DNA of 64,000 nt from a virus, in the IMG/VR virus record IMGVR_UViG_3300021963_000049, positions 1-64,000 of that record. One strand, 5' to 3'. Every line of letters begins with the position of its first letter. Within the stretch, counting starts at the first letter, position 1. Positions 8,686 to 61,308 of this stretch are shown here, in pieces. Position numbers and translations under genes: made by a program. The notes below the pieces were generated by a model, which was given only the letters and a program-made list of their open reading frames with translations, ran no database searches and was not told the origin of the DNA.

Positions 8686-11600
8686 ATGGCAGAAGAAAAT
8701 ACAACAGATCCGGTAGGACAAATGTCAAATTTTAATTCTTTCATTGATCCTGCAAAGATTGAGATGGAAGCTTATAAACCTATTGGTACACCAGCTTTAT
8801 TTGATGCTCATTCATTACCTGGAGGTAACAATATTTCTAATCCTACATATGCAATTAAAGATGGGACATCTGGTTCTGCTCCTAACTTTCCTGTAAATTC
8901 TGCTTCACAAGTAGCAAAACAAGGTCAAGATAAAGGTATGCTTATAGCTCAAAAGCTTAAAGCAGATCTTAATTTATTAGAGGATAAAAATAATTATTCT
9001 AAAATATATGCTTATGATGCTGGTAAAAATGGTGCATTTAAGGCAAGATATAAAGCATATGGTCAAGAAACATTTGATAAAGTAGGTTTTCATCCATTAA
9101 TAGATAATGAAACTTGGTTTAATGCAAATACAACAGGGTGGGATGACTTTAAAAGAATGATGACTCATTCTGCTTTACCATTACTTACTCAAGGATTTAT
9201 GGATCCTATAAAAAGTTATGCAAGTTTCTTTGGTAATGGTGGAGATATAACAGGTGATTCACTTGGTGCTGCTAGTTATGATGAGTTATCTGCAATAGGT
9301 TATTCTACAAAAGGTGGTTTTGCCGGATTTACTACTAATCTTGTACAATCAGCAGCATACAGTGTTGGTATTTTAGCTGAAGGTGCTGTTGAAGGTGCAT
9401 TGGTTGGAGCAGCTGTAGGTGCAGCAGAAGGTGGTGTTACTGCAATTCCAGGTGCTGCAATTGGAGGTGCCGCTGGGTTTTTAAAAAGCTTATGGAGACT
9501 TCCAAGCGCATTAGCTAAAATGACATTTTCATTTGGTAAGATGGCTGTTAATCTTAATAGAGCAGCAAAATTAGCAGAAGCAAAAAATTTATTTGTCAAT
9601 GCAAGTAAATCTATGGGTAACTTTTTTAATCCATTAGAGAATACTAAGAATGCAGCAATGAACTATGTGTTCAAAAATCCAGATGACCTAACTGCATTAG
9701 CAAGAACTGCAAAAACTGCAGGAGCATTATGGCATGATGCTAAAAACTTAAACATGGCTCTTTCTGAAGGGAGACTTGAGGGAGGTATGGCTGAGAATAG
9801 AGTATATGAGAAATTATATAATGACCACTATAATGTGTATGGTGAGCCACCTGATGATGCAAAGCAACAAGAGTTTCATGATATAGCAAAACAAGCTAAT
9901 CTAACAAATACAATATCAAATAGTTTGCTTGTATTCTATAGTAATAAAATTGCATTTCCATCAATTACACAAGCCAAGTTCTTAAAAGGACTGCCTAAGA
10001 CAGGATTTGGTACTGTAATAGGTAATGTAGGTAAAGAGTATCAGTTAGTATATACTCCAGCTAAAGATGTTGCAGAAGCTGTGTATTCAGCAGAAAGAGT
10101 AAGTTTGGGTAATGCTGTTAAAGCATTTGTTAAACCGAAGATATATGGTAGAGTAGCATTAAATTACTTTAAGAAAAATCTTGTTGAAGGTTTCCAAGAA
10201 GTATCACAAGATGCATTAGCAACTGCAACAGAAGAGTATTATACTAATACATATTATGATCCAGCTGCAAAAAATTTCCAGTATGCAATGGGAACTCTTA
10301 GAGGAGGTTTTGCTAAACAGATGAGTGCGCAAGGTTTTGAAACTTTTTTATCTGGTTTTGCAATGGGTAGTATCCTACAAACACCTTCTACAATTGCTAA
10401 ATATATGAGCATAGGTTATAATAAATACTATAAGTATAGAGATAACTATGATGAATATCTTAAAAATGTAGGAGATAGTGCCAATGAAGCTGTAGATGCT
10501 TTAAACACTATGCATAAAAACGGTAAATATTTTTTTGATCCAAGATTAGGCAACTATGTAAATCAAGTCCTAATAGGTAAAAAAATAGATGATGAGGATA
10601 CTAGAACTAAGAATGAAATAAAGGATGATGAGTTTACTGCATTTACTTCAGCTGTAACAACAGCACTTAGAACAGGAACTTTTGATTTGTTCTTAAATAA
10701 TTTTGCAGGATACAAACAAGCAAGTCCAAAAGATATTGAAGAAGCTTGGAATCTAGAAGAGGGTCAAGGAGAAAAAGCTTTACAAAGTATAGATAAAGCT
10801 ATTAATGGAGCTAAGATTATAGCAAATAGATATAATGAGGCTAAGAAAAAGATGAAGTATCTTAGAAATCTTAGTGACTTAGAGCCAGGCACAGAAGAAT
10901 ATAAAATGGGCCAGTTATATAATGAAGCGTATGAAGCTGGATTAACTAACCTAGTTTATATGCAAAGCGCATTTGATGATAACTTGGGTAGATTAAATAA
11001 TTTATATCAAGACTTAGGTAATCTTAAATCTTTACAGGAAGTAGGATTTACTAATGTAGCTAATCTTGTAGAACCAGGTAAATTAAATAGAGAGATTCAA
11101 ATGCTTCAGACAGAAATTGAAGCAGCAGAAACTTATACAGATCCAACTGCAGTAGAACAAGTTGCAAGAAAGAAAAGTCTTTTAACTGCAATGACCAACT
11201 TTCAAAAAACTCAAGATGGTTTAGTAAATGCTTTTGTAAATAATGAAATAATAAAGCAAAGAAAAGCAGAACTTCTTGCAGAAGATTCATCTCTTACTCC
11301 AGACTCAGCAGAAATGAAAGTTATTGATGAGTTAATCCAAGAGTATGAGGATAATCAAACTAATCCATTCTTAGAGTATAAAGATGCTTTTGCTGAATTA
11401 TTAAGAGCCTATGTAGGTACTCCTGAAAAACAAATTCAGTTAGAGGATGAGATAATGAAAAAGGGTGGCTATGATAGCATGTTTGATGCACTAGTAGATA
11501 CACACATTATTAGAAAAGGAAATGCAGGTTTAATACAGTATATTAACTTACTTAATGATCCAAAAGGTTTCTATGAGCACATAGAAAGAAACTTTGAGTG

Positions 11601-14600
11601 GATGAAGAAGTTATATAATAGAAAAGAGCAGTATTATAAAGACATAGTAAACTCTGAGCTTACTAACATCCAAAGAAATGAGATATTAAATACTCTTGCA
11701 GCTCAAGGTATTTATGTTGACTTAGAAGAATTTGCTAATTGGGTAGAAAACCATGATAATCTTCCTTCTTATTTTATAGATGCTCCTAAAGGCATGATCA
11801 TCAATGAGGGCAGTATCTTATATGATGAGTATATAAAAATCTTTGATGATGCTGCTACACTAGAGGATAATCTTCCATCTAGTAAGATGACTGATAAGGA
11901 AATAGTAGATAGCAGAATCAATGAGATAGAGGATGAGAGAGTTGAAAAACTAGACCAAGCTAAATCTAGATATAATACTGCTCTTAAGAAAGAGATAGGT
12001 TATGATGAAAAAGAGTATGGTGAGAAGAAACAAGAGCTTGCTAATCAGGAAACTGTTTTAGAATCAGAAAAAGTTCAGTTACAAGATAGAAAAAAACTAC
12101 TTGAAAAATCTATCAAACAACTTAACTCATCAGATATAATTGAAGTTCAAGGAGTTTATGCTGCGGCACAAGAACTTGGATATATAACTGATGAGCTTTA
12201 CCAACAGGCTGAAGAAGCGGTAATTGCTAATCCTGATAGACTTGCAGAAGCACAAAAAGCTTTAGCTAAATATGATCAATCAATTCCACAGCAAGATAGA
12301 GCTACCGCTGCATTCTATTCAGTTATACTAAAACCATTACTAGAAGATGCTATAGCTGAGATAGATGCTCAATTAGGCCAAGCTGCTCCTGAGTTAATTG
12401 ATCCGGTTACTACAAAATCATATGCAGTATTCCAAGAAGAGCTTAAAGCTATCAATGATAAGTATGATGGTCTAATACAGAATCTAAAGAATGACTTTAG
12501 AAAGCAAGGTATAAATCCAGATGCAGTAACTGAGATAACAGTAGAAACTCCGTATGAGCAAATGCCTCAAGATCTTAAAGACATATTAGATCCATTATTT
12601 GCTGAGCACTTAGAGTTTATTGAAATATCTCCAACACTAGCTGAAGTAGATCCAAATCAATACCAAAGTATTAGATCTAGATGGATTGAGTCTCAGGCAG
12701 CTGTTATTAGAAAATATAATACAGATAAAAAAGCAGAAGTTGCAGAAAGAGCTAAGAAATTAGCTGAGCCACCAGTATTAAAGTTTGCGCCAAAAGGTGA
12801 AAAGCCTGCAAAAATTACTGCTCAAACTAGTGGAACTGCATTATCTGAATACTATGAAAAGATTGCTAAGACTTTAGAAGACGGAGAATATACTAATAAG
12901 AAAAATGAACTAGTACAGTTAACTCCAGAAGATATTGAAAATATTAAAGCTGACTTAGCTGCATTAGAAGGTTATATTGATGCCAGAACAAAAACATATA
13001 GGCCTCAATCTATTGCTGAAGAAGTAGTAGACAATATAGTTAAGAATGTAATAAATGTACAAGACCAAGTAGTTGATGTATTTGATGAGTCTGGTAGAAA
13101 AATAGGTAGAAGATTTGCTGATACACCAGTAATTACAACAGGTGCTCCTATCTCTGCAACAACTGCTACTACAGATGCTAAAGCTGATATAGAAAGAAGA
13201 AGACAAGAAGAATTAACTGAACTCGGTCAAAAGCAATTAACAAAAGGTTTCAATACTTTATCAGAAGCAACCAAACCAGAACAAGTTGCTAATGCTATAG
13301 TAAATATTGAACAAAATAAAAATCAAGGAGCAAGGCTTTCAAAAGAACAAGAACAACAATTATCAGAAGCTAAGGCAAAATTAAAAAAAGAAGGATATGA
13401 AATAGTAGATTACAATATAGTTAGATACGGAGAGAATACAATAGTAGAAAGTGTAGATTTTTATAATAGTGAAAAAGATGTCCTTACAGAAGAACAAGCT
13501 AATGCAATAGAATCAAAAATAAATTCATTAGAAAAAAGAGGAGAAGAAGTTCATGTAGATGACTTGCCATCACCTGTATCAAGAACTATTAAACCACTAA
13601 TTAAAAAAGATGGGGTAATGGTTCAAGCCGCAAAAGTTAATACTTTAATTTTTGAAAGTGTTGAACAAGCAAGAGAAGCTATTAAAAAATCAAGAGAAGC
13701 TGGTAATAAAAAACCTAATGCAGCTGATAAAATCAATGCTAAATATGATGCAGAACTAGCTGCTTTAGGAACTGCTCCAACTCAGACAACTGAAGTTATA
13801 TCAAATCTACCTACTAGGGCTACAAAAGTTGCAGAACAAGTTGATCTTGAAATAACAGGTAAAGATCCTTTTCTTTATAATAGATTGGAGGATGAGACTA
13901 TTCAAAAAGACTTTAGAATAGCATTAAATAGCCAAGATATAAAGGATGAAGAGAGACTTAACTTCTTCATGACTGCATTTGAAAAGAAAAATTATCCTGC
14001 ATTTAGATCTAAGAGAAAACTAAAGTTACTTAGAACTTCTCTTGAAAATAATTTTACAGAGGAGAATCTAGTTAATACAGTACAAAGATTGGCTTATGAT
14101 GAGTCAACAATTGCTGGAGATAATGTAGATAATTTAATTAGAGATTTCTTAACTCCTGATGCTGTAACTGGATTTAAACAAATTACTTGGGATCCAAATG
14201 TAATGACAGAAGAGGCATTCAATACTTTATTTCATCCTGCAACAGGTATTGTAACTAAACTTAGACAAGGTATTATTGATGGTCAATATACTATCTTATC
14301 TGAGAATGTTAAAGTATTTGATAGAAATTATAAAGACAATGGTATCACAGGTGAGTTAGACTTATTAGCCATTGACAAAGATGGTAATGTCTCAATTATA
14401 GATATCAAAACTGGTAGATTTAAAAACTGGGAAGCCTATGGAACTGGTGCAAAATCAGATAAGCAAACATACTTCCGGGCTCAGCAATCTATATACAAAA
14501 ATCTATTCTATAACATGACTGGAATAGATGTCCAAAGAATAAGTTTATTACCTATTGGTATAACAACTGATCTTGATGGTAAGATACTAGAGCTTGGATT

Positions 14601-16959
14601 AACAGAACTTACACCTGAAGGTGAGGATACTCTTGAATTAGAATATCTTCCAGAAGTAGAGGCAGCTGGAGTAACTAAAATTGCACCAGTTGAGGCAGCT
14701 CCTACACCTACAACAGTAGCATCTACTGAAGATATAGAAACAAAAAGAAAAAGTGTCTTATTAAGAAAGGAAGATTTAAGTAAAGCTCCTGAGTTTGCAC
14801 AAAAAGCAATTGCTAAAACTGTAGAAGCTATAGATGAAGATATCAGACTACAAGTAATTGAAAAAGCTTATGAAGGAGTTACAGCAAGTCCGATTGCTAA
14901 AGAATTAGGATTAACCACAGAACAAGTAAGAAGTATAAGAACATACTATGGTGTACCTGATATAGCAGATAAACAAGATTATCAAAAATGGAAATCAGGT
15001 ATTGATGCAGAACTAGCTGCTTTAGAAAAAGGAGTTACCGAATCTAAAAAAACAATCCCACTATCTGATCCATCAAAAGTTTCACTAGAAGAAAACTTAA
15101 ACAAGCCGATTGTGTATAATGGCAGACTTGGTAAATTAATTCTTTTAGATGATGGGGTATTTGGTGTAGAGCTAGATCAATCTAGTAAAGTAACTGAATT
15201 AAGTCTAGTACTTGAAGGATTGAAAGCTAGTTTAGAAGTAGAGTTAGGTGAGTTTGGTAATCCTACACAAGCCGCAGAACTTAAAAATACAATTGCTGAA
15301 GTACAAACTGAGTTAGATAAACAAGCTCAAACTAAACAAATCATTGAGTTAACTAGAGATCTGATGCCAGTAAAAGATGGTAAACTATTACTATCTCAGG
15401 CAGGAATATTTCCAATTAATAATATAACTGAAGTAGCTCAAGTAACTGTAATAAATAAAGAGCAATATGATGCTAAGTTTGATGATCCATCAGAAAAAAC
15501 AGCAACAATAAATGGTGTTAAATACACAGTAAATAGAAATGCCCAAGGTAACATAGTTTCATTATCCTATGGAGTTAATGATAAAGCTATTGCAGACATA
15601 GAAGCTGAAACAAAAGCTATTTCAGATAGAATACAAAGTTTAAGAGCTAAGTTTTCTCAAGCCACAACTGAAGAAAAAAGTGTATTGTCTAAAGAGATAA
15701 GTACAGAACTTTCTAAGATTAATCAGCTTAACAGAAAAAGACTAGATCTTTTTGAATCTAATGCCCAGAGAACTGTTTCAGGTGGTAATGCAAACAATTT
15801 AATTTTTGCACTTAACAGACTTCCAAATAGTTTCCAAAAAGGACATCAGCAAAAGAAAGCTAGTGATGAAAAGAGAGAGTTAAAAGAAATAGCAAGTTTA
15901 TCTTCTGCATCAGATGCAGCAAATAAAGCAATGGATGATATCTTAGGATACCAGTATCCGGCTGCTTTAGACAAGCTATTTGAACAAGGTGTATCAAAAG
16001 TATCCAACCAGGATCTATATAAAATATCCATTTGGGCGGAGGATGCATTAGCTAAACTTGAAGAGTTAGCATCAATAATGTATAACAACAATGAAGTAGT
16101 AACAGATATATTTAATCAGATAAATGCTATAGAGGGTCTATTAAATGATCTTCAGTTAATTAAACTAACTAAAAATGGACAAATCAGCAAACAGCAACCA
16201 AAAGAACTCAAAGAACTCTTTGGACCAACAAGGAAAGAATTACCGAACAGGCCTAGTGTATCTGAGGTTCAAGTCCCTGTCGGAGGAAAAACAGAAGCAG
16301 TTTCTAGACAAGCAACAGATGAGGAACTTAGTAAACTCAGAGAAAAAGTAAGAAACATCAAGACTAAAGGTGATGAGCTTATTGGAGAAATTTCTTTAGA
16401 AGAAACTAAACCTACATCTCCAGTTGTTGAAGAAATTCAGAAAACAAAAGATCCGGTTAAGCTTAAAGAAATTTATGATAGAGCTATTATCCAAGAAGCT
16501 AAGAACCCAGGTACTGTAGATCTTAATGCTGCAAAAGAAGCCTTTGACCAAAGAATGACAGAAATTGCAACAGTAATGGACATAGAAAACATTGTTGTTG
16601 ATGAGCCGGTATTATCTAAAAAAGATATAGGTGAAGCTTTGGCAGGTAGCACTTTCTTAGTATCTTCGTTTAGAGGAAATAAGGTCTATATAACCAACCT
16701 AAAAACTGGTAAAGGCCAGTGGTACAATAATAGTGAACTTGTGGAAAATTTTAAGAAAGCTCCGGTAGAAGGTATAGAAATGGAAAAAGAAGTAGAACTT
16801 ACACTAGATGATGTTGAAGATTTCAAATTAAATACTGAAACAGTTAATAATACTCTAGAAGATATAGATGCATTAAATGCTGCAGCTAAATCTGTAGAGG
16901 AAGCTCAAACAAAAGGAAGTTTTAGAAATCAGTTGAAGAATAAAAATTGTAATATTTAA
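8686..16959 (+). CDS. Giant ejected virion protein 1, multidomain, with a PD-(D/E)XK nuclease domain
   Basis: 2757 aa; Gly/Ala hydrophobic segment (GALVGAAVGAAEGG...GAAIGGAAG); coiled coils; GELDLLAID...IIDIKTG...QQSIY nuclease motif at about 14341-14495. Confidence 0.75.
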   Translation: MAEENTTDPVGQMSNFNSFIDPAKIEMEAYKPIGTPALFDAHSLPGGNNISNPTYAIKDGTSGSAPNFPVNSASQVAKQGQDKGMLIAQKLKADLNLLEDKNNYSKIYAYDAGKNGAFKARYKAYGQETFDKVGFHPLIDNETWFNANTTGWDDFKRMMTHSALPLLTQGFMDPIKSYASFFGNGGDITGDSLGAASYDELSAIGYSTKGGFAGFTTNLVQSAAYSVGILAEGAVEGALVGAAVGAAEGGVTAIPGAAIGGAAGFLKSLWRLPSALAKMTFSFGKMAVNLNRAAKLAEAKNLFVNASKSMGNFFNPLENTKNAAMNYVFKNPDDLTALARTAKTAGALWHDAKNLNMALSEGRLEGGMAENRVYEKLYNDHYNVYGEPPDDAKQQEFHDIAKQANLTNTISNSLLVFYSNKIAFPSITQAKFLKGLPKTGFGTVIGNVGKEYQLVYTPAKDVAEAVYSAERVSLGNAVKAFVKPKIYGRVALNYFKKNLVEGFQEVSQDALATATEEYYTNTYYDPAAKNFQYAMGTLRGGFAKQMSAQGFETFLSGFAMGSILQTPSTIAKYMSIGYNKYYKYRDNYDEYLKNVGDSANEAVDALNTMHKNGKYFFDPRLGNYVNQVLIGKKIDDEDTRTKNEIKDDEFTAFTSAVTTALRTGTFDLFLNNFAGYKQASPKDIEEAWNLEEGQGEKALQSIDKAINGAKIIANRYNEAKKKMKYLRNLSDLEPGTEEYKMGQLYNEAYEAGLTNLVYMQSAFDDNLGRLNNLYQDLGNLKSLQEVGFTNVANLVEPGKLNREIQMLQTEIEAAETYTDPTAVEQVARKKSLLTAMTNFQKTQDGLVNAFVNNEIIKQRKAELLAEDSSLTPDSAEMKVIDELIQEYEDNQTNPFLEYKDAFAELLRAYVGTPEKQIQLEDEIMKKGGYDSMFDALVDTHIIRKGNAGLIQYINLLNDPKGFYEHIERNFEWMKKLYNRKEQYYKDIVNSELTNIQRNEILNTLAAQGIYVDLEEFANWVENHDNLPSYFIDAPKGMIINEGSILYDEYIKIFDDAATLEDNLPSSKMTDKEIVDSRINEIEDERVEKLDQAKSRYNTALKKEIGYDEKEYGEKKQELANQETVLESEKVQLQDRKKLLEKSIKQLNSSDIIEVQGVYAAAQELGYITDELYQQAEEAVIANPDRLAEAQKALAKYDQSIPQQDRATAAFYSVILKPLLEDAIAEIDAQLGQAAPELIDPVTTKSYAVFQEELKAINDKYDGLIQNLKNDFRKQGINPDAVTEITVETPYEQMPQDLKDILDPLFAEHLEFIEISPTLAEVDPNQYQSIRSRWIESQAAVIRKYNTDKKAEVAERAKKLAEPPVLKFAPKGEKPAKITAQTSGTALSEYYEKIAKTLEDGEYTNKKNELVQLTPEDIENIKADLAALEGYIDARTKTYRPQSIAEEVVDNIVKNVINVQDQVVDVFDESGRKIGRRFADTPVITTGAPISATTATTDAKADIERRRQEELTELGQKQLTKGFNTLSEATKPEQVANAIVNIEQNKNQGARLSKEQEQQLSEAKAKLKKEGYEIVDYNIVRYGENTIVESVDFYNSEKDVLTEEQANAIESKINSLEKRGEEVHVDDLPSPVSRTIKPLIKKDGVMVQAAKVNTLIFESVEQAREAIKKSREAGNKKPNAADKINAKYDAELAALGTAPTQTTEVISNLPTRATKVAEQVDLEITGKDPFLYNRLEDETIQKDFRIALNSQDIKDEERLNFFMTAFEKKNYPAFRSKRKLKLLRTSLENNFTEENLVNTVQRLAYDESTIAGDNVDNLIRDFLTPDAVTGFKQITWDPNVMTEEAFNTLFHPATGIVTKLRQGIIDGQYTILSENVKVFDRNYKDNGITGELDLLAIDKDGNVSIIDIKTGRFKNWEAYGTGAKSDKQTYFRAQQSIYKNLFYNMTGIDVQRISLLPIGITTDLDGKILELGLTELTPEGEDTLELEYLPEVEAAGVTKIAPVEAAPTPTTVASTEDIETKRKSVLLRKEDLSKAPEFAQKAIAKTVEAIDEDIRLQVIEKAYEGVTASPIAKELGLTTEQVRSIRTYYGVPDIADKQDYQKWKSGIDAELAALEKGVTESKKTIPLSDPSKVSLEENLNKPIVYNGRLGKLILLDDGVFGVELDQSSKVTELSLVLEGLKASLEVELGEFGNPTQAAELKNTIAEVQTELDKQAQTKQIIELTRDLMPVKDGKLLLSQAGIFPINNITEVAQVTVINKEQYDAKFDDPSEKTATINGVKYTVNRNAQGNIVSLSYGVNDKAIADIEAETKAISDRIQSLRAKFSQATTEEKSVLSKEISTELSKINQLNRKRLDLFESNAQRTVSGGNANNLIFALNRLPNSFQKGHQQKKASDEKRELKEIASLSSASDAANKAMDDILGYQYPAALDKLFEQGVSKVSNQDLYKISIWAEDALAKLEELASIMYNNNEVVTDIFNQINAIEGLLNDLQLIKLTKNGQISKQQPKELKELFGPTRKELPNRPSVSEVQVPVGGKTEAVSRQATDEELSKLREKVRNIKTKGDELIGEISLEETKPTSPVVEEIQKTKDPVKLKEIYDRAIIQEAKNPGTVDLNAAKEAFDQRMTEIATVMDIENIVVDEPVLSKKDIGEALAGSTFLVSSFRGNKVYITNLKTGKGQWYNNSELVENFKKAPVEGIEMEKEVELTLDDVEDFKLNTETVNNTLEDIDALNAAAKSVEEAQTKGSFRNQLKNKNCNI
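13746..15025 (+). repeat. 23-bp perfect intragenic direct repeat TGATGCAGAACTAGCTGCTTTAG (encodes DAELAAL)
   Basis: Copies at 13746-13768 and 15003-15025. Confidence 0.9.
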
Positions 16960-46315: not shown

Positions 46316-46741
46316 TCATTTTGTTTTATAGAAGCGGCCTAAAATATTTCCATTAAGAAACACTTCTTTCTCAAGCACTTCATATTTGAATTGATGTTTT
46401 ACTTCTTGGTATGTTAACTCCATCTGGGAGTAACATATTCTAAGAATTACTCTGTTAATCACAACACCTGCTTTATGGGCATCTTTTAAGATCTTATTAC
46501 TACTGTAATATCTCATAAAATCAGGTTTAAGCTCTCTTACATATTTCTTTAGTCTTTTGTCTGTTGACATAGCCAAAGCTTTTTTACCAAGAGGTCTTTT
46601 AATATTAGCAAAGAAGTTCTTCTTGCCAATATATGCTACAGACTTACCATCTATGATAGCAGTCATAATATAGATGAACCCTACACCTCCTTCAGGTATA
46701 TCACCTTCAGTAAATTCTTTACCTTGATATATCCAACTCAT
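46316..46741 (-). CDS. Short GIY-YIG family nuclease
   Basis: GFIYIM...AYIGKK, YYSSN, terminal FLNGNI. Confidence 0.7.
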   Translation of the reverse strand: MSWIYQGKEFTEGDIPEGGVGFIYIMTAIIDGKSVAYIGKKNFFANIKRPLGKKALAMSTDKRLKKYVRELKPDFMRYYSSNKILKDAHKAGVVINRVILRICYSQMELTYQEVKHQFKYEVLEKEVFLNGNILGRFYKTK

Positions 46742-47718
46742 AATGCTTGTTTTAATAATGGAAATAATTTATCTCTTACAGCTTCAACACCAAAGTCTTT
46801 TACTGAATCAGATAGATCTTTAGACATATCCAGAATTATTTTATTAATTCCATACTTGTCCTTATATCTATCAGCAGCTTTTATACCTGGTTCATCATTA
46901 TCAAACAGGACAATGATTTTGCTATACTTTGGAAATAACTTATTCATTGTAGTTTCTCCAATCATTGTATTCTCACTATCTGGAGCAATACACTCTATAT
47001 TCCCTATGTTAAGCTTTGTAAAAGCCATAAGATCTTTAAGAGAAGATACAATTAGTAAATACTTTTTCTCATAAGTTAACTGGTCAATACCTTGAGTATA
47101 GTTATGGACTTTAATAAACTTTTTATCTGGATTCTTTGGAAGATAAATCTTAAACAACTCACCATCATCTCTAAAGTAACCATACATGTATGGCTTAGAG
47201 AATCTAAATGAAGTTATAGTACCATCTTCTTCCCGCTTCTCCATTATAAAATAACTAAGTGGAGAAACATTATATTTTTCCAGAATAGAAGACCCAATCT
47301 TATAACTCAACCAATACTTCTGATCTAGATTATTCCAGTGTCTAATTTCATGGTCTACTACTTTAAATTTATCATGAGACTTAATCTCCGGCCTTTCTGC
47401 TGTAGTATTATGTTTTAAATACTCTTCATAGTCAGAAATAACTTTCTTAGCAGCAGCATCTCTATTGGCCATGTTAAACATAAACTTTACCAACTCAATA
47501 CCATCTCCCTGAAAACCAGAGGAAAAATCTTTAAACTTATAAGAGTTACTGTTATCTGTATAGATAAACATAGAAGGAACTTTGTCCTTAGAATTAAATA
47601 CAGATAGTATTTTTACATTTTGACCAGTAAGATTTTCTTTTAAACCTAAATAATATTCAAATATCCAAGTGCTTGGAACATCAAATATATTACTTACATA
47701 AATTCTAGTAGAAATCAT
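46738..47718 (-). CDS. DNA primase (Toprim)
   Basis: N-terminal SVF...DKVPSM...FKDFSSG..GD; SSLKD; LFDNDEPG; KDLSD. Confidence 0.85.
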   Translation of the reverse strand: MISTRIYVSNIFDVPSTWIFEYYLGLKENLTGQNVKILSVFNSKDKVPSMFIYTDNSNSYKFKDFSSGFQGDGIELVKFMFNMANRDAAAKKVISDYEEYLKHNTTAERPEIKSHDKFKVVDHEIRHWNNLDQKYWLSYKIGSSILEKYNVSPLSYFIMEKREEDGTITSFRFSKPYMYGYFRDDGELFKIYLPKNPDKKFIKVHNYTQGIDQLTYEKKYLLIVSSLKDLMAFTKLNIGNIECIAPDSENTMIGETTMNKLFPKYSKIIVLFDNDEPGIKAADRYKDKYGINKIILDMSKDLSDSVKDFGVEAVRDKLFPLLKQAL

Positions 47719-48476: not shown

Positions 48477-49196
48477 TTATATAAACACTTTGTCCCAACT
48501 GGTTGTTAGAACATTATCTACCATTTCAGATACTACTATCTCTTCATTTCTCAAATGCTCTGGTCTTGCACCACAGGTAACTTCTTCATTAGTTTTAAAA
48601 CTAAGAATAGTTTTGTTTCCCTTGCGGTACATGTAGCCAATTGCATCTGCATTTGCACAGATCAAAGATCTTATTTTACCTGTCAAATCTATATTAGCAG
48701 ACATTACAAGTTCACCTTTATCATCAACTTGTTTGTCTTTAATATGCCCTGATAAAATAATTGTGGGTGCTAATGTATCAATAAAATCCAATACCTGAAA
48801 AAATGCTTGCCTAATATATAAATATCCGGCACCATTAGGTAAGGTTACTACAGTATCCCCATCAAAGTTTTTACCCATTGGAGTTTGACGGTAAAGTTTT
48901 ATAGCTAAAGGCATTATCATTTCTTCTAATGCAGTTACAGTATCTACTGTAATAAACTTATAAGGTTTACCAGCTTCTTTAATAGCTTTACCAACATCTA
49001 GTAATTCTTGAAGACTTCCAATTTTAACCTTCAATGCATCCACATATTCAGTACCATTTTCTAAATCAAGAATCAGATTGTTGTCTAGACCAGCAAATGC
49101 TGTTGTCTTACCAGTTTTTGGCTTAGAATAAATCACAATTCTTTTAGGATTTACTCTTTCTGCCTTTACTTTACTTGTTGGAAGAACTATACTCAT
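48477..49196 (-). CDS. AAA_24 / Sak4-like ATPase (ssDNA annealing)
   Basis: YSKPKTGKTT, ILDLENG, TVDTVT, LSGH, ADAIGY. Confidence 0.8.
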   Translation of the reverse strand: MSIVLPTSKVKAERVNPKRIVIYSKPKTGKTTAFAGLDNNLILDLENGTEYVDALKVKIGSLQELLDVGKAIKEAGKPYKFITVDTVTALEEMIMPLAIKLYRQTPMGKNFDGDTVVTLPNGAGYLYIRQAFFQVLDFIDTLAPTIILSGHIKDKQVDDKGELVMSANIDLTGKIRSLICANADAIGYMYRKGNKTILSFKTNEEVTCGARPEHLRNEEIVVSEMVDNVLTTSWDKVFI

Positions 49197-49840: not shown

Positions 49841-50836
49841 TTAAATTTTAATTTTTGTACCTGCTTGTGCTGGTGGGTCAATTTCTATAATTCTCATTGT
49901 ATCTCTGTCCAACTTGAAAAAACTAATTCTGGTGGTGCCATTTCTTGACTTCAGAAAGTGAAATACTAAAATGTCCTCATCATGAATAATAAATTTTTCA
50001 GGGCCATAGTGTCTAATCTTCCTTATAGAAGGTTTGTTAATACCCATAACCACATCAGCATGCTGTAATAAAGCATCAGAACCATATATATCAGAATCTA
50101 ATACATAATTACCATATTCACCATCTCTTGATCTTTCTGGAGCATCAATATTTCTATTTAATTGGCTTAGGACTAAAAAGGCCACGGGATAGTGCTTCTT
50201 CATGTGAGTCAATGCTTCACCTAATGCACCTAACATATCAAATTTATCCTTTTGCCCTTTAGCCAACCTAAATAATGCAGAGTGATCTATAGTTACAAGC
50301 ATGTTAGTATACTTTCCATCTTTCTTGTGTTTCTCCATTTGATAATGGATAGTTGCACACATTTCATCTACTGTACATGCATCATAAACCACATCCACAA
50401 AATCTGTTGCTTCAGTTTTTTGATAATAATCTACACATTTCTGGAAGATTGTCTTATCAACAAGCTGGTTCTTACTCATTAATGTATTGTAATCAGCACC
50501 TGTAATCAGACTAAATTTTCTTATTCCACTGGTTTCATCAACCATTTCCATTTGGAACTTAAGTATTCTATATTCTTGATCAGTATTTAGTTCTATAATA
50601 TCACTAATTAACTGCTCCATGAATAAAGTCTTACCAGTTCCTGGTCTAGCACCTACTACAGTGATAGTTCTCCATTCTAATCCATCACAAAAGGCATCAT
50701 TAAATTTTGGCCAGACACTTTTGAGTACTTTTAACTCACCGTTTCTTTTTGCTTTCATCTTTAAGAGTCCCTTCTTTAGAGCATCTCTTTCACTGACCGG
50801 TAGTAAAGGTCTAGCATTATTAAATAATTCTGCCAT
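49841..50836 (-). CDS. dnaB: Replicative helicase, DnaB C-terminal domain only
   Basis: GARPGTGKT, FQMEM, IDH, LSQLNR, SDIYGSDALLQHADVV, KSRNG. Confidence 0.9.
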   Translation of the reverse strand: MAELFNNARPLLPVSERDALKKGLLKMKAKRNGELKVLKSVWPKFNDAFCDGLEWRTITVVGARPGTGKTLFMEQLISDIIELNTDQEYRILKFQMEMVDETSGIRKFSLITGADYNTLMSKNQLVDKTIFQKCVDYYQKTEATDFVDVVYDACTVDEMCATIHYQMEKHKKDGKYTNMLVTIDHSALFRLAKGQKDKFDMLGALGEALTHMKKHYPVAFLVLSQLNRNIDAPERSRDGEYGNYVLDSDIYGSDALLQHADVVMGINKPSIRKIRHYGPEKFIIHDEDILVFHFLKSRNGTTRISFFKLDRDTMRIIEIDPPAQAGTKIKI

Positions 50837-60344: not shown

Positions 60345-60569
60345 TTAGTCTTCAAGAAATTCTATCATACTTGGTGCACCAGTTAATTTCTTATACATTA
60401 ATTGCACTTTAGCAGCATTTACAGCTCCATTATATGATTTTAAAGCTAATTCTGCTGCTTTAAGATCATTTGTTTCTTCATATACACTTGCTGTAGAATC
60501 AGCAATATTTAATAACTGTGTTCTAACTTCACTAATTGTTTGTGTTTTTAGCTTCTTTACTCTTGACAT
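60345..60569 (-). CDS. Small helical hypothetical protein
   Basis: 74 aa overlapping the end of the Zn-finger gene. Confidence 0.6.
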   Translation of the reverse strand: MSRVKKLKTQTISEVRTQLLNIADSTASVYEETNDLKAAELALKSYNGAVNAAKVQLMYKKLTGAPSMIEFLED

Positions 60570-61308
60570 ACCTATAAAATTTAAGTTGTTTTCTTTTTAA
60601 TTCTAATATTTCTTGTGGAACATCTTCCAATTTAAAACCTAATCTGTTAGCAATAAATCCATCATTCATATGTTCAGATTGCATTTTAAGGACTACAGAT
60701 TTTGGTAATTTATCCACATTCTTATACTCTTCTGGATAATCATACTTTCTATTAGCTTTAGTTTTTTCTAACCATCTTTTTTTCCATTCTTCTTGATAAG
60801 TCTCAAGATCATAACCTTTAGCAAATACTTTTATGTATTTAGCTTTTTCTTTTTTAGTAGAACCTTCAGGATAATTATACTTTAGATTTTTCTTACCAGC
60901 TGTTAGTTTATTATTCATTTTAATAGCTTTCAGTTCTTCTTCAGTAGAAACTCCATATTTAATCATAAGCTTTTTATCTTTTCTTTGCATTGTCATTAGA
61001 CCATTGCACTTTTTGCAAACATGTCTAAAACTAATAGAATCAGCAGATAAAGGCTTACCCTTAACAATAGTTCCCTTTTTAGTAACTTTTTTATAAAAGT
61101 ATTCCCCAGTTAAAGGGAATACTTCTTTGCAGTTACTACAGGCTTTCTCAGTTTTCTTTGGTACTAAAACTACTCTACTATTTGCATATGCCCGAGAGCA
61201 GGTTATACACATAGATCTCAAACCATATTTACCTCTTTTTTGAACATGAAAATTATTTCTTGTAGCAGGTAAATTAGTATTACACTTGGTACAAACTTTA
61301 TAATTCAT
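60532..61308 (-). CDS. Basic protein with two tandem C4 Zn ribbons
   Basis: CTKC...CITC and CSNC...CKKC; repeated KY(N/D)YPE. Confidence 0.7.
   Translation of the reverse strand: MNYKVCTKCNTNLPATRNNFHVQKRGKYGLRSMCITCSRAYANSRVVLVPKKTEKACSNCKEVFPLTGEYFYKKVTKKGTIVKGKPLSADSISFRHVCKKCNGLMTMQRKDKKLMIKYGVSTEEELKAIKMNNKLTAGKKNLKYNYPEGSTKKEKAKYIKVFAKGYDLETYQEEWKKRWLEKTKANRKYDYPEEYKNVDKLPKSVVLKMQSEHMNDGFIANRLGFKLEDVPQEILELKRKQLKFYRYVKSKEAKNTNN

Follow-up and report, generated by a model that had tools for sequence, protein, structure and literature searches.

How do unrelated domains come to lie inside giant phage proteins between borders that are identical even at silent codon positions? The question is raised by P0001, a giant open reading frame (ORF) in IMG/VR virus record IMGVR_UViG_3300021963_000049, the genome of a marine crAss-like phage (116,688 bp, CheckV completeness 99%); the window analysed here is the first 64 kb of this record (64,000 nucleotides, nt). 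An earlier examination of the DNA letters, hereafter the sequence-only reading, had pointed to two segments of P0001, denoted A and C below, that close with the same 23-bp sequence and bracket a nuclease domain, and had interpreted their borders as recombination handles through which variable payload domains are swapped into an injected protein. Our analysis suggests that P0001, a relative of the cargo protein gp47 of crAss001, probably carries two plug-in cassettes, namely, modules that are wrapped in a helical hairpin and exchanged by recombination over short homology. Each cassette would consist of a payload domain placed between two short amphipathic helices, the first containing (K)ADIERRRQEEL and the second containing the DAELAAL peptide (the right motif), and the two cassettes would occupy the linkers on either side of the conserved nuclease-like domain of P0001.

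The 23-mer TGATGCAGAACTAGCTGCTTTAG is present in the window in two exact plus-strand copies, at 13746-13768 and 15003-15025, and both are in frame within P0001, where they encode DAELAAL at amino acids (aa) 1688-1694 and 2107-2113. With up to 3 mismatches allowed, these are the 2 matches in the window, compared with 0.00 expected from 100 shuffles, and in the complete 116,688-bp record, with up to 2 mismatches, there are again no other copies than these 2. Given the codon usage of the giant ORFs in the window, the probability that DAELAAL is encoded by exactly these seven codons is 0.0042, and the chance that two independent copies agree in their codons is, by the same codon table, also about 0.004; the first Leu codon, CTA, is a minor one that accounts for 14% in the giant genes of the window and 11.5% in the fetched loci. 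Apart from the shared end, the two segments are unrelated, and the BLASTP alignment between them is limited to the final 23 residues (E 0.025). Both open behind Thr/Ala/Pro-rich linkers, the first with TTDAKADIERRRQEEL and the second with STEDIETKRK, and segment A is indeed more A-rich than its flanks (AT skew 0.38-0.41 in intervals spanning 13100-13549, as opposed to 0.19-0.22 in 12950-13249 and 13550-13999). Thus, the description of the two segments in the sequence-only reading, including the in-frame repeat, the openings behind linkers, the unrelated contents and the A-richness of the first segment, is accurate. The features of P0001 on which the argument relies are as follows.

8686 to 16959, plus strand: giant ORF P0001, 2757 aa, a gp47-like relative that houses cassettes A and C
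12945 to 12970, plus strand: border look-alike in the backbone, IKADLAALEG (TPEDIENI upstream), 69% like the 26-nt reference copy
13141 to 13182, plus strand: Thr/Ala/Pro-rich linker before cassette A (TPVITTGAPISATTATTDAK region), part of the insert, missing in 6/6 aligned orthologs
13183 to 13215, plus strand: left handle A, ADIERRRQEEL (aa 1500-1510), predicted N-terminal helix of the wrapper
13216 to 13731, plus strand: payload A, predicted alpha/beta domain of about 170 aa, outside assignable families
13732 to 13768, plus strand: right handle A, holding 23-mer copy 1 (13746-13768), predicted C-terminal helix of the wrapper
13769 to 13806, plus strand: linker after cassette A (TAPTQTTEVISN), final part of the insert, missing in the 6 aligned orthologs
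13807 to 14700, plus strand: PD-(D/E)XK-like backbone domain (GELDLLAID...IIDIKTG), present in backbone orthologs and matching crAss001 gp47
14728 to 14751, plus strand: degenerate left border of cassette C (EDIETKRK), after linker PVEAAPTPTTVAST
14752 to 15003, plus strand: payload C, putative small helix-turn-helix domain (SPIAKELGLTTEQVRSIRTYYGV), with HTH_23 and PHROG 7061 matches
15003 to 15025, plus strand: 23-mer copy 2 (DAELAAL, aa 2107-2113), closing cassette C

A sequence profile of the wrapper detects 3 places only across the genome, namely, both ends of cassette A (the left one at 13180-13296, E 1.3e-7) and the right end of cassette C. The left border of C is missed by this profile and is therefore a degenerate version; homologous C-type cassettes start with SEIETRKNILL. 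We also observed that the left and right handles of cassette A resemble each other (13174-13194 versus 13735-13755, DAKADIE/NAKYDAE, about 16/20 nt in a local alignment with a score of 14); judging from this resemblance, the two helices may have arisen by duplication or be alike by chance.

Comparison of P0001 with its orthologs shows that both segments are additions to a conserved backbone. Among the relatives of P0001 (106 proteins retrieved from 5.8 billion with residues 1400-2200 as the query), the backbone orthologs align by BLASTP to residues 1-~1480, 1708-~2001 and ~2106/2130-2757 with contiguous subject coordinates, and hence lack both segments. In a MAFFT alignment, segment A together with its linkers (aa ~1486-1707) is a clean insertion that is missing in 6/6 orthologs, among them P0002, the closest one (backbone 73-76% identical to P0001). 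Segment C is missing in 5/6 of these orthologs, and P0002 has in its place an unrelated module of about 115 aa that begins with PAEDIQVKKADIKRRREEEL, is flanked by sequences near-identical to those in the window and leads into the same ...DAELAALE-GVTESKKTIPLSD continuation. This replacement was read at the protein level rather than from nucleotide breakpoints, and a scan of metagenome contigs with the P0002 stretch returned only a distant locus, L184 (46% identity). When flanking anchors were used to delimit the two sites in a larger set, site A was empty in 35/36 orthologs, with P0040 holding a different, wrapped cassette of 122 aa. At site C, 31/48 orthologs have a 20-28-aa linker, 3/48 have 52 aa, and the remaining 14/48 have inserts of 82-532 aa, which are of several kinds and 8 of which end in the right motif, which makes site C an insertion hot spot. 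The content between the borders is, accordingly, not fixed among the relatives. The look-alike at 12945-12970 was considered as a third border copy and rejected, as this stretch is kept in place in 6/6 aligned orthologs.

The same comparison changes the interpretation of the nuclease. Its location between the two segments is as described in the sequence-only reading, but the proposal that it is cargo of the cassette system does not hold: the PD-(D/E)XK-like region is retained in all aligned orthologs and is thus conserved backbone rather than a payload, which makes the bracketing incidental. Deletion between the two 23-mer copies, which are 1257 nt or 419 codons apart, would be in frame, as had been pointed out, and would remove a domain that the orthologs keep. 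For the domain itself, the Pfam match to PDDEXK_1 is below the threshold (E 0.025), and a sequence search of the PDB gave 0 matches at E <= 1. It is this region that ties P0001 to a characterized phage protein: residues 1810-1957 match crAss001 and its relatives with 29.8-31.1% identity (tblastn, E 2e-10 to 3e-10), the sole match of P0001 among deposited phages, covering 5% of the query, and the crAss001 gene beneath this match is gp47. At about 30% identity over the nuclease-like region, gp47 is a relative of the backbone, and by this criterion P0001 groups with the crassvirus gp47-type cargo proteins. According to the crAss001 structure study, gp47 is a 262.5 kDa, RNA-polymerase-associated cargo protein that mass spectrometry finds in virions, and its capsid packaging is thought to be followed by ejection that involves partial unfolding (PMC10172136). 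By analogy, P0001 would be present in the virion and ejected into the host. It belongs to a run of seven consecutive giant plus-strand ORFs that cover 33-34684 of the window.

The two borders are found far beyond P0001, with highly diverse contents. Taking as a cassette any stretch within one ORF that opens with a (K)ADIE(R/K)RRQEEL-type motif and is closed by the DAELAAL-type motif that comes next, we found the border pair KADIERRRQEEL...right motif in 46 distinct stretches in the fetched loci. The 45 cassettes of up to 400 aa, each opened by the motif of left handle A, span 23-273 aa, with interiors that BLASTP sorts into 41 clusters; there are also nearly payload-free units of 44-47 aa in six contexts, and tandem arrays, such as the three consecutive cassettes in P0110. 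The exact 23-mer was detected in 76 IMG/VR viral contig stretches and in 0 stretches of the GTDB representative bacterial and archaeal genomes; relatives of the giant ORFs in the window co-occur in 40 of the 76 carrier loci. No exact copy from gut phage records surfaced in these searches, none of which was aimed at gut phages. All instances of the 23-mer read xDAELAAL(E/G) in frame; a linker rich in Thr/Pro/Ser/Ala/Gln comes after them, and the 45 residues before them are highly diverse. After removal of instances more than 70% identical in either flank, the 73 instances with 90-nt flanks yielded 49 non-redundant contexts, in which conservation forms an island that consists of INAKY (41-86% per base, the last base being fixed by the search pattern), the 23-mer and GAA, with background on both sides; the motif is followed by Glu in 47/49 contexts. 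Of 1.84 billion representative proteins, a profile of the minimal unit matched 440 at E <= 0.001 (67 at <= 1e-10), and 87 of the 149 newly listed proteins are at least 1500 aa long, with up to 9 matched stretches in a single protein. The payloads travel as well: 14 giant proteins (1605-4645 aa) match P0001 in segment A only, with 56-94% identity, and segment C alone matches four otherwise unrelated giants, P0073 to P0076, with 69-73.5% identity.

Conservation of the border peptide could reflect selection on the protein, whereas conservation of its codons calls for a separate account. A codon-blind scan with the pattern TAY GAY GCN GAR YTN GCN GCN YTN G detected at least 120 stretches (80 loci listed), and the matches listed fall into two families, the cassette type and a tail-fibre repeat. 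The cassette type comprises, among these matches, 20 distinct contexts, all with GC <= 0.45; all seven codons are identical in 14 of them, compared with an expectation of 0.4% from codon usage, and the other 6 differ at 1-4 positions. The tail-fibre repeat provides a natural control because it contains the same octapeptide, YDAELAAL, as the cassette border but in an unrelated context, with GC of 0.27-0.72 and freely varying codons. Among the matches listed, it is represented by 54 distinct contexts, 0/54 of which have the 21-mer; this includes the 26 contexts with GC <= 0.45 (0/26), which differ from it at 2-5 positions. The tail-fibre repeat is widespread among viral contigs and occurs in L079-L145 (e.g., L097:1855-1879 and 2041-2065). 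The effect is weaker in the left handle, where one 27-mer is common to 9/16 ADIERRRQE instances compared with the expected 4%. Of the 76 carrier loci, 40 or more encode relatives of the giant cargo proteins of the window that are only 22-64% identical to them in amino acid sequence; these loci still have the identical 23-mer, so the same spelling is found in deeply diverged phages. At the right border, synonymous conservation is thus in large excess, and the outcome that would have refuted the sequence-only reading, fixed content between the borders and no such excess, is not what the relatives show.

The borders are also places where nucleotide similarity starts and stops. The window and locus L001 are identical in 553/589 nt (93.9%) over 13180-13768, that is, from handle to handle of cassette A, and only in 43-44% of the 100 nt on either side; the L001 protein, a gp47-like protein of 2143 aa that shares 32.6% identity with P0001 over its N-terminal 1100 aa, has this cassette in a different place, behind another cassette that ends in KKYDEELDAL. 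Among blastn high-scoring pairs between loci (at least 200 nt and at least 80% identity), an end of the 23-mer is no more than 12 nt away from 34 of the 62 untruncated right ends, and 30 of the 58 left ends are located at a left motif, with the chance expectation at about 0.3%. Metagenome contigs add to this picture: in each of the four runs described below, several contigs part from the window at 13180 and at 13768. Unrelated payloads between handles identical at silent sites, along with blocks of homology that stop at these handles, imply that junctions have repeatedly formed within the handles or at their inner edge.

At the protein level, the borders are likely to have a structural role as well, which was not part of the sequence-only reading. 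The AlphaFold model of segment A (18 aligned sequences, mean pLDDT 84.9) has an alpha/beta middle part between a long first helix (residues 6-42), which includes the left motif, and a last helix (residues 194-210), which corresponds to the right motif. Segment A aligns to antiparallel hairpins and coiled coils over residues 1-220, with 73-91 residues aligned, and the matches include the monomeric coiled coil of Kif21A, the arm of seryl-tRNA synthetase and the MtbSI insertion of the RNA polymerase beta-prime subunit; because the two ends of the model both take part in these alignments, its terminal helices are predicted to lie side by side. The model of the 57-aa minimal unit shows helix 2-22, a loop and helix 30-55 (pLDDT 84.7, pTM 0.66), and its Foldseek matches are helical hairpins only, none of them significant, with TM up to 0.84. 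From these models, the wrapper is probably an antiparallel helical hairpin. A module with its ends held together in this manner would fit any exposed linker, which explains the amino acid conservation of the helices. Structure at the nucleic acid level was also considered: with mononucleotide shuffles, the folding z-scores are -3.6 for copy 1, -1.3 for copy 2 and +1.5 for the left handle, and given this inconsistency, the idea of an RNA or DNA structure in the handles was rejected. Nor were terminal inverted repeats found, as a transposon- or MITE-like in-frame element (e.g., the Rickettsia palindromic elements) would have, the best complementarity between left and right handles scoring 10, the maximum of 200 shuffles.

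Taken together, these observations are best explained, in our view, by the following scenario. The hairpin would join the ends of a module such that it fits into a surface linker and leaves the host protein undisturbed. The DNA common to the cassettes, some 30-45 nt per side with the 23-mer included, is near-identical around unrelated payloads in divergent phages, and the simplest cause would be that co-infecting phages swap, gain and lose payloads via homologous recombination within the handles, a process that would also homogenise the handles themselves. Through such swaps, proteins that enter the cell along with the genome would be re-equipped. The phage's own Sak4-like annealing protein is a possible catalyst:

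48477 to 49196, minus strand: Sak4-like single-strand annealing protein (phrog_124, E 6.7e-30)

Proteins of this type support recombination on short, imperfect homology, and a part for the Sak4-like protein in cassette exchange is conceivable on these grounds. Its gene is located in the replication module, beside those for the primase (46738-47718) and a DnaB-like helicase (49841-50836).

Several observations weigh against handle-mediated exchange. Handles are not uniform, as shown by the degenerate left border of cassette C and by other C-type cassettes that close with DAELKAL or NAELAAL. Almost half of the block ends (28/62 right ends and 28/58 left ends) fall elsewhere, indicative of exchange beyond the handles; P0023, P0025, P0028, P0029 and P0043 have the core of payload A without one or both motifs; and a P-loop kinase occupies site C in P0030, P0033, P0037 and P0038 without a wrapper. 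In P0080 (1552 aa), residues ~1312-1400 correspond to the left handle followed by ~80 residues from the start of payload A, after which the protein switches to unrelated sequence, which makes it a chimera with a breakpoint inside the payload. The pairing of the helices is deduced from the residues that the alignment programs used, within a hairpin that is itself modelled. At sites A and C, neither recombination events nor intermediates or population variants were seen. The handle interpretation of the sequence-only reading stands as far as variable content, synonymous conservation and border breakpoints are concerned, and the role of the handles in exchange is inferred from comparative patterns. 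Finally, all sequences come from metagenome assemblies, and the handles are repeats at which contigs break, so some of the payload-backbone joins elsewhere could be mis-assemblies. The site C kinase has precomputed Pfam labels of Zeta toxin (PF06414) and AAA_33 (PF13671), and P0031 has a wrapped cassette plus the kinase.

A first alternative is that the wrapper is structural only. The DNA would then be identical because a successful wrapper arose recently and spread fast, with no part in promoting recombination, and the modules would move through illegitimate recombination, with in-frame products being selected. A structural role alone could plausibly explain the amino acid conservation of the helices, and recent spread could give identity at silent sites; the hairpin models favour such a role, and the breakpoints away from handles, the payloads without wrappers and the P0080 chimera also speak for this alternative. 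Besides, even under handle-mediated exchange, the first insertion at a handle-free site, such as site A, which is empty in 35/36 orthologs, would still require a non-homologous event. What this explanation fails to accommodate is the combination of 41 content clusters with identical codons in 14/20 listed contexts, which places the junctions in the handles or at their inner edge, the location of over half of the homology-block ends at the motifs compared with a chance of about 0.3%, and the drift of the same peptide at silent sites in tail fibres (0/26 among the matches listed). We consider it unlikely, although it is the strongest of the alternatives.

A less probable alternative is that the right motif is a dual-coded protease cleavage site or a capsid-targeting tag that releases the modules after assembly or ejection, a function that may coexist with handle-mediated exchange; the conservation of the DNA would then be a by-product or serve a second function. 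The Glu that nearly always follows the motif, and the flexible Thr/Pro/Ser/Ala linker after it, are suggestive in this respect, given that the sites of the phiKZ head protease have the form S/A/G-x-E, which A-x-E resembles. Polyvalent proteins, moreover, have been proposed to be cut into functional units by a peptidase domain (PMC5512222). However, copy 1 in the window, like several others, is followed by Gly, P0001 has no Pfam peptidase domain at E <= 1, and cuts at both cassettes would split the backbone protein. Processing would leave the silent-site identity, the conserved left helix and the predicted pairing of the helices without explanation.

It is even more improbable that the mosaicism is an assembly artefact, with assemblers jumping between phages at the common handles. 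We compared the contigs of four sequencing runs (marine, marine, estuary and freshwater, by their records) over 12800-15900; small shares in runs X5 to X24 were left out of account. Each run has 6-7 contigs that part from the window immediately upstream of 13180 and 6-9 that do so immediately downstream of 13768; the two handles of cassette A are thus places where contigs break, and several further contigs of each run share them. Likewise on the side of an artefact, run X2 has part of payload A (13272-13435 and 13488-13613) in two variants of comparable depth: the first matches the window exactly, and the second shows 12 differences in 164 nt. This sample thus contains at least two genomic versions of payload A. 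In run X1, which may be the source sample and, in that case, is not independent, the path of the window is covered by contigs 12800-13198, 13187-13753 and 13742-15627. The last of these continues unbroken through the nuclease region and cassette C and beyond, and, from either side, backbone contigs extend into the linkers and handles of cassette A; these uninterrupted contigs support the presence of a cassette at site A and of the whole cassette C, with the join of payload A to this particular backbone resting on the assembler. An assembly chimera would, moreover, need to enter and exit in frame at orthologous positions, the handles exist however the payloads are joined, and the cassettes recur in proteins from many independent sources. 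The joint from 13768 to 15026, the trace of a deletion between the two 23-mer copies, is not among the 15 of 29 joints that were listed, an uninformative result given that contigs drop rare variants.

Chance, codon bias or local tandem duplication, for which one could cite the AT-rich genome, the biased codons and the generic-looking helix peptide, can be dismissed as an origin of the 23-mer repeat in view of the 0.00 copies expected in shuffles, the codon probability of 0.004, the minor CTA codon, the unrelated interiors and the 49 other contexts.

What do the cassettes deliver? The sequence-only reading regarded the payloads as effectors, and nothing that we found shows this, with almost no payload recognised by Pfam. 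Across the 46 cassettes there are eight weak Pfam matches, each confined to a single member, and the unrelated carrier giants P0014 and P0076 have 0 Pfam families. For payload A, no Pfam family reaches the threshold, the ESM Atlas gave no usable match for segment A, and a Foldseek search of BFVD gave nothing at E <= 0.001. The top PDB matches of payload A in Foldseek are GrpE (E 0.018, probability 0.92), and GrpE aligns to the segment A model over residues 44-174 with Z of 5.2-5.7. In a wide structural search, however, 660 chains reach Z >= 5 and GrpE is missing from the top 50, and there is no Pfam GrpE match; the resemblance of the modelled payload A to GrpE is, accordingly, weak and not distinctive, and a chaperone-related theme among the payloads is possible but unproven. 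Cassette C matches HTH_23 (E 1.4e-4 with the whole protein and 1.3e-5 with the cassette alone, both under the curated Pfam cut-off) and PHROG 7061, a family of helix-turn-helix DNA-binding proteins (E 0.0027), which makes it a candidate DNA-binding module.

A more general hypothesis, which we put forward only tentatively, is that aquatic crAss-like phages run an order-wide plug-and-play system for injected proteins. The wrapper of about 50 aa would be a portable coding adaptor, the DNA identity of which is kept for exchangeability among very distant phages via their own annealing recombinases, and the linker slots would be re-armed on ecological time scales with DNA-binding, chaperone-hijacking (GrpE-like fold) or anti-defence modules. 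If such a system exists, it would be the phage analogue of 'recer' sequences or of integron cassettes, at work inside a reading frame.

Coding or junction sequences that mark exchange points are not new. The closest functional precedent, by analogy, appears to be the 'recer' sequences at junctions of Gram-positive surface proteins, which, according to de Chateau and Bjorck in 1996, reportedly promote intron-free, in-frame domain shuffling. As with these, the same nucleotide sequence joins non-homologous modules in the phage proteins, and the breakpoints of gain, loss and replacement are found at those sequences. The recer sequences differ in that they belong to bacterial cell-wall proteins and involve a single junction sequence between tandem modules, whereas here two different borders would encode a paired hairpin in phage virion proteins. 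In polymorphic toxins, a coding motif (VENN in CdiA, PxxxxDPxGL in Rhs) likewise marks the exchange point of variable domains, but only the C-terminal tip varies, with an immunity gene as the partner and silent orphan cassettes downstream. Cassettes A and C, by contrast, are internal, with conserved backbone on both sides, the next gene is a giant ORF rather than a partner gene, and the genome has no spare cassette copies. The lambdoid 'boundary sequences' and the T4-type PeSL cassettes are short conserved DNA sequences at module junctions that support homologous exchange during co-infection; they lie between genes, whereas the handles described here are inside a reading frame and would also encode a working protein element. 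The MtbSI insertion of RNA polymerase (5uh7_B) resembles the modelled cassette (85 residues aligned, Z 6.5, rmsd 3.8 A) in that an antiparallel coiled-coil stalk carries it; this is a generic arrangement, with no evidence of common descent, and we know of no mobility of the lineage-specific hairpin insertions of RNA polymerases. Inteins were considered as well, and no intein or Hint Pfam family was detected in P0001 (E <= 1) or in the cassettes.

Polyvalent proteins are similar in being very large, mosaic multi-domain proteins delivered with invading DNA; in the portions of the text considered here, their mosaicism is described as extensive and the cassettes of one kinase system as 'reminiscent of polymorphic toxin systems' (PMC5512222). 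The difference is that the main-text passages describe no conserved two-sided border motif, although the supplementary alignments might list the hairpin differently; as far as the main text goes, there are 0 occurrences of 'linker', 'low-complexity' and 'shuffl' (PMC5512222). The signature domains of the polyvalent proteins, that is, the MPTase peptidase and associated domains, were not detected by Pfam, either in P0001 (E <= 1) or in the 46 cassettes (E <= 0.01), and as candidates for conflict-related domains P0001 has only the sub-threshold PDDEXK_1 and HTH_23. Literature searches, which did not extend to supplementary files (those of PMC5512222 may bear on the matter), returned no description of the motif pair, including YDAELAALE. 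Domain mosaicism in giant injected proteins is thus already known, and a defined, two-sided, in-frame joint is undescribed in the searchable literature.

This joint combines fixed spelling at silent sites, coincidence with the ends of homology blocks and, by the models, a hairpin that is probably neutral to insertion. Injected proteins act first in infection, so their rate of change bears on host range and counter-defence. If the handles drive exchange, they would explain, in a concrete and testable manner, how viruses shuffle domains without introns, and would offer a two-motif tag with which to harvest hundreds of uncharacterised small payload domains from viromes and a natural design rule for the insertion of domains into large proteins.

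Some additional features of P0001, its relatives and the window are worth recording. Near the N-terminus of P0001, at 9200-9650 of the window, there is a Gly/Ala-rich, glycine-zipper-like segment (aa 217-271) with sub-threshold Pfam matches to DUF6861 and Gly-zipper families and GC of up to 0.39-0.42. Other Pfam labels among the relatives are LysM (PF01476) in P0056 and PF25176 in P0063. Downstream, at 60532-61308 on the minus strand, a 258-aa ORF has a weak match to phrog_5558 (E 2.9e-7) and might encode a Lar-like restriction alleviation protein.

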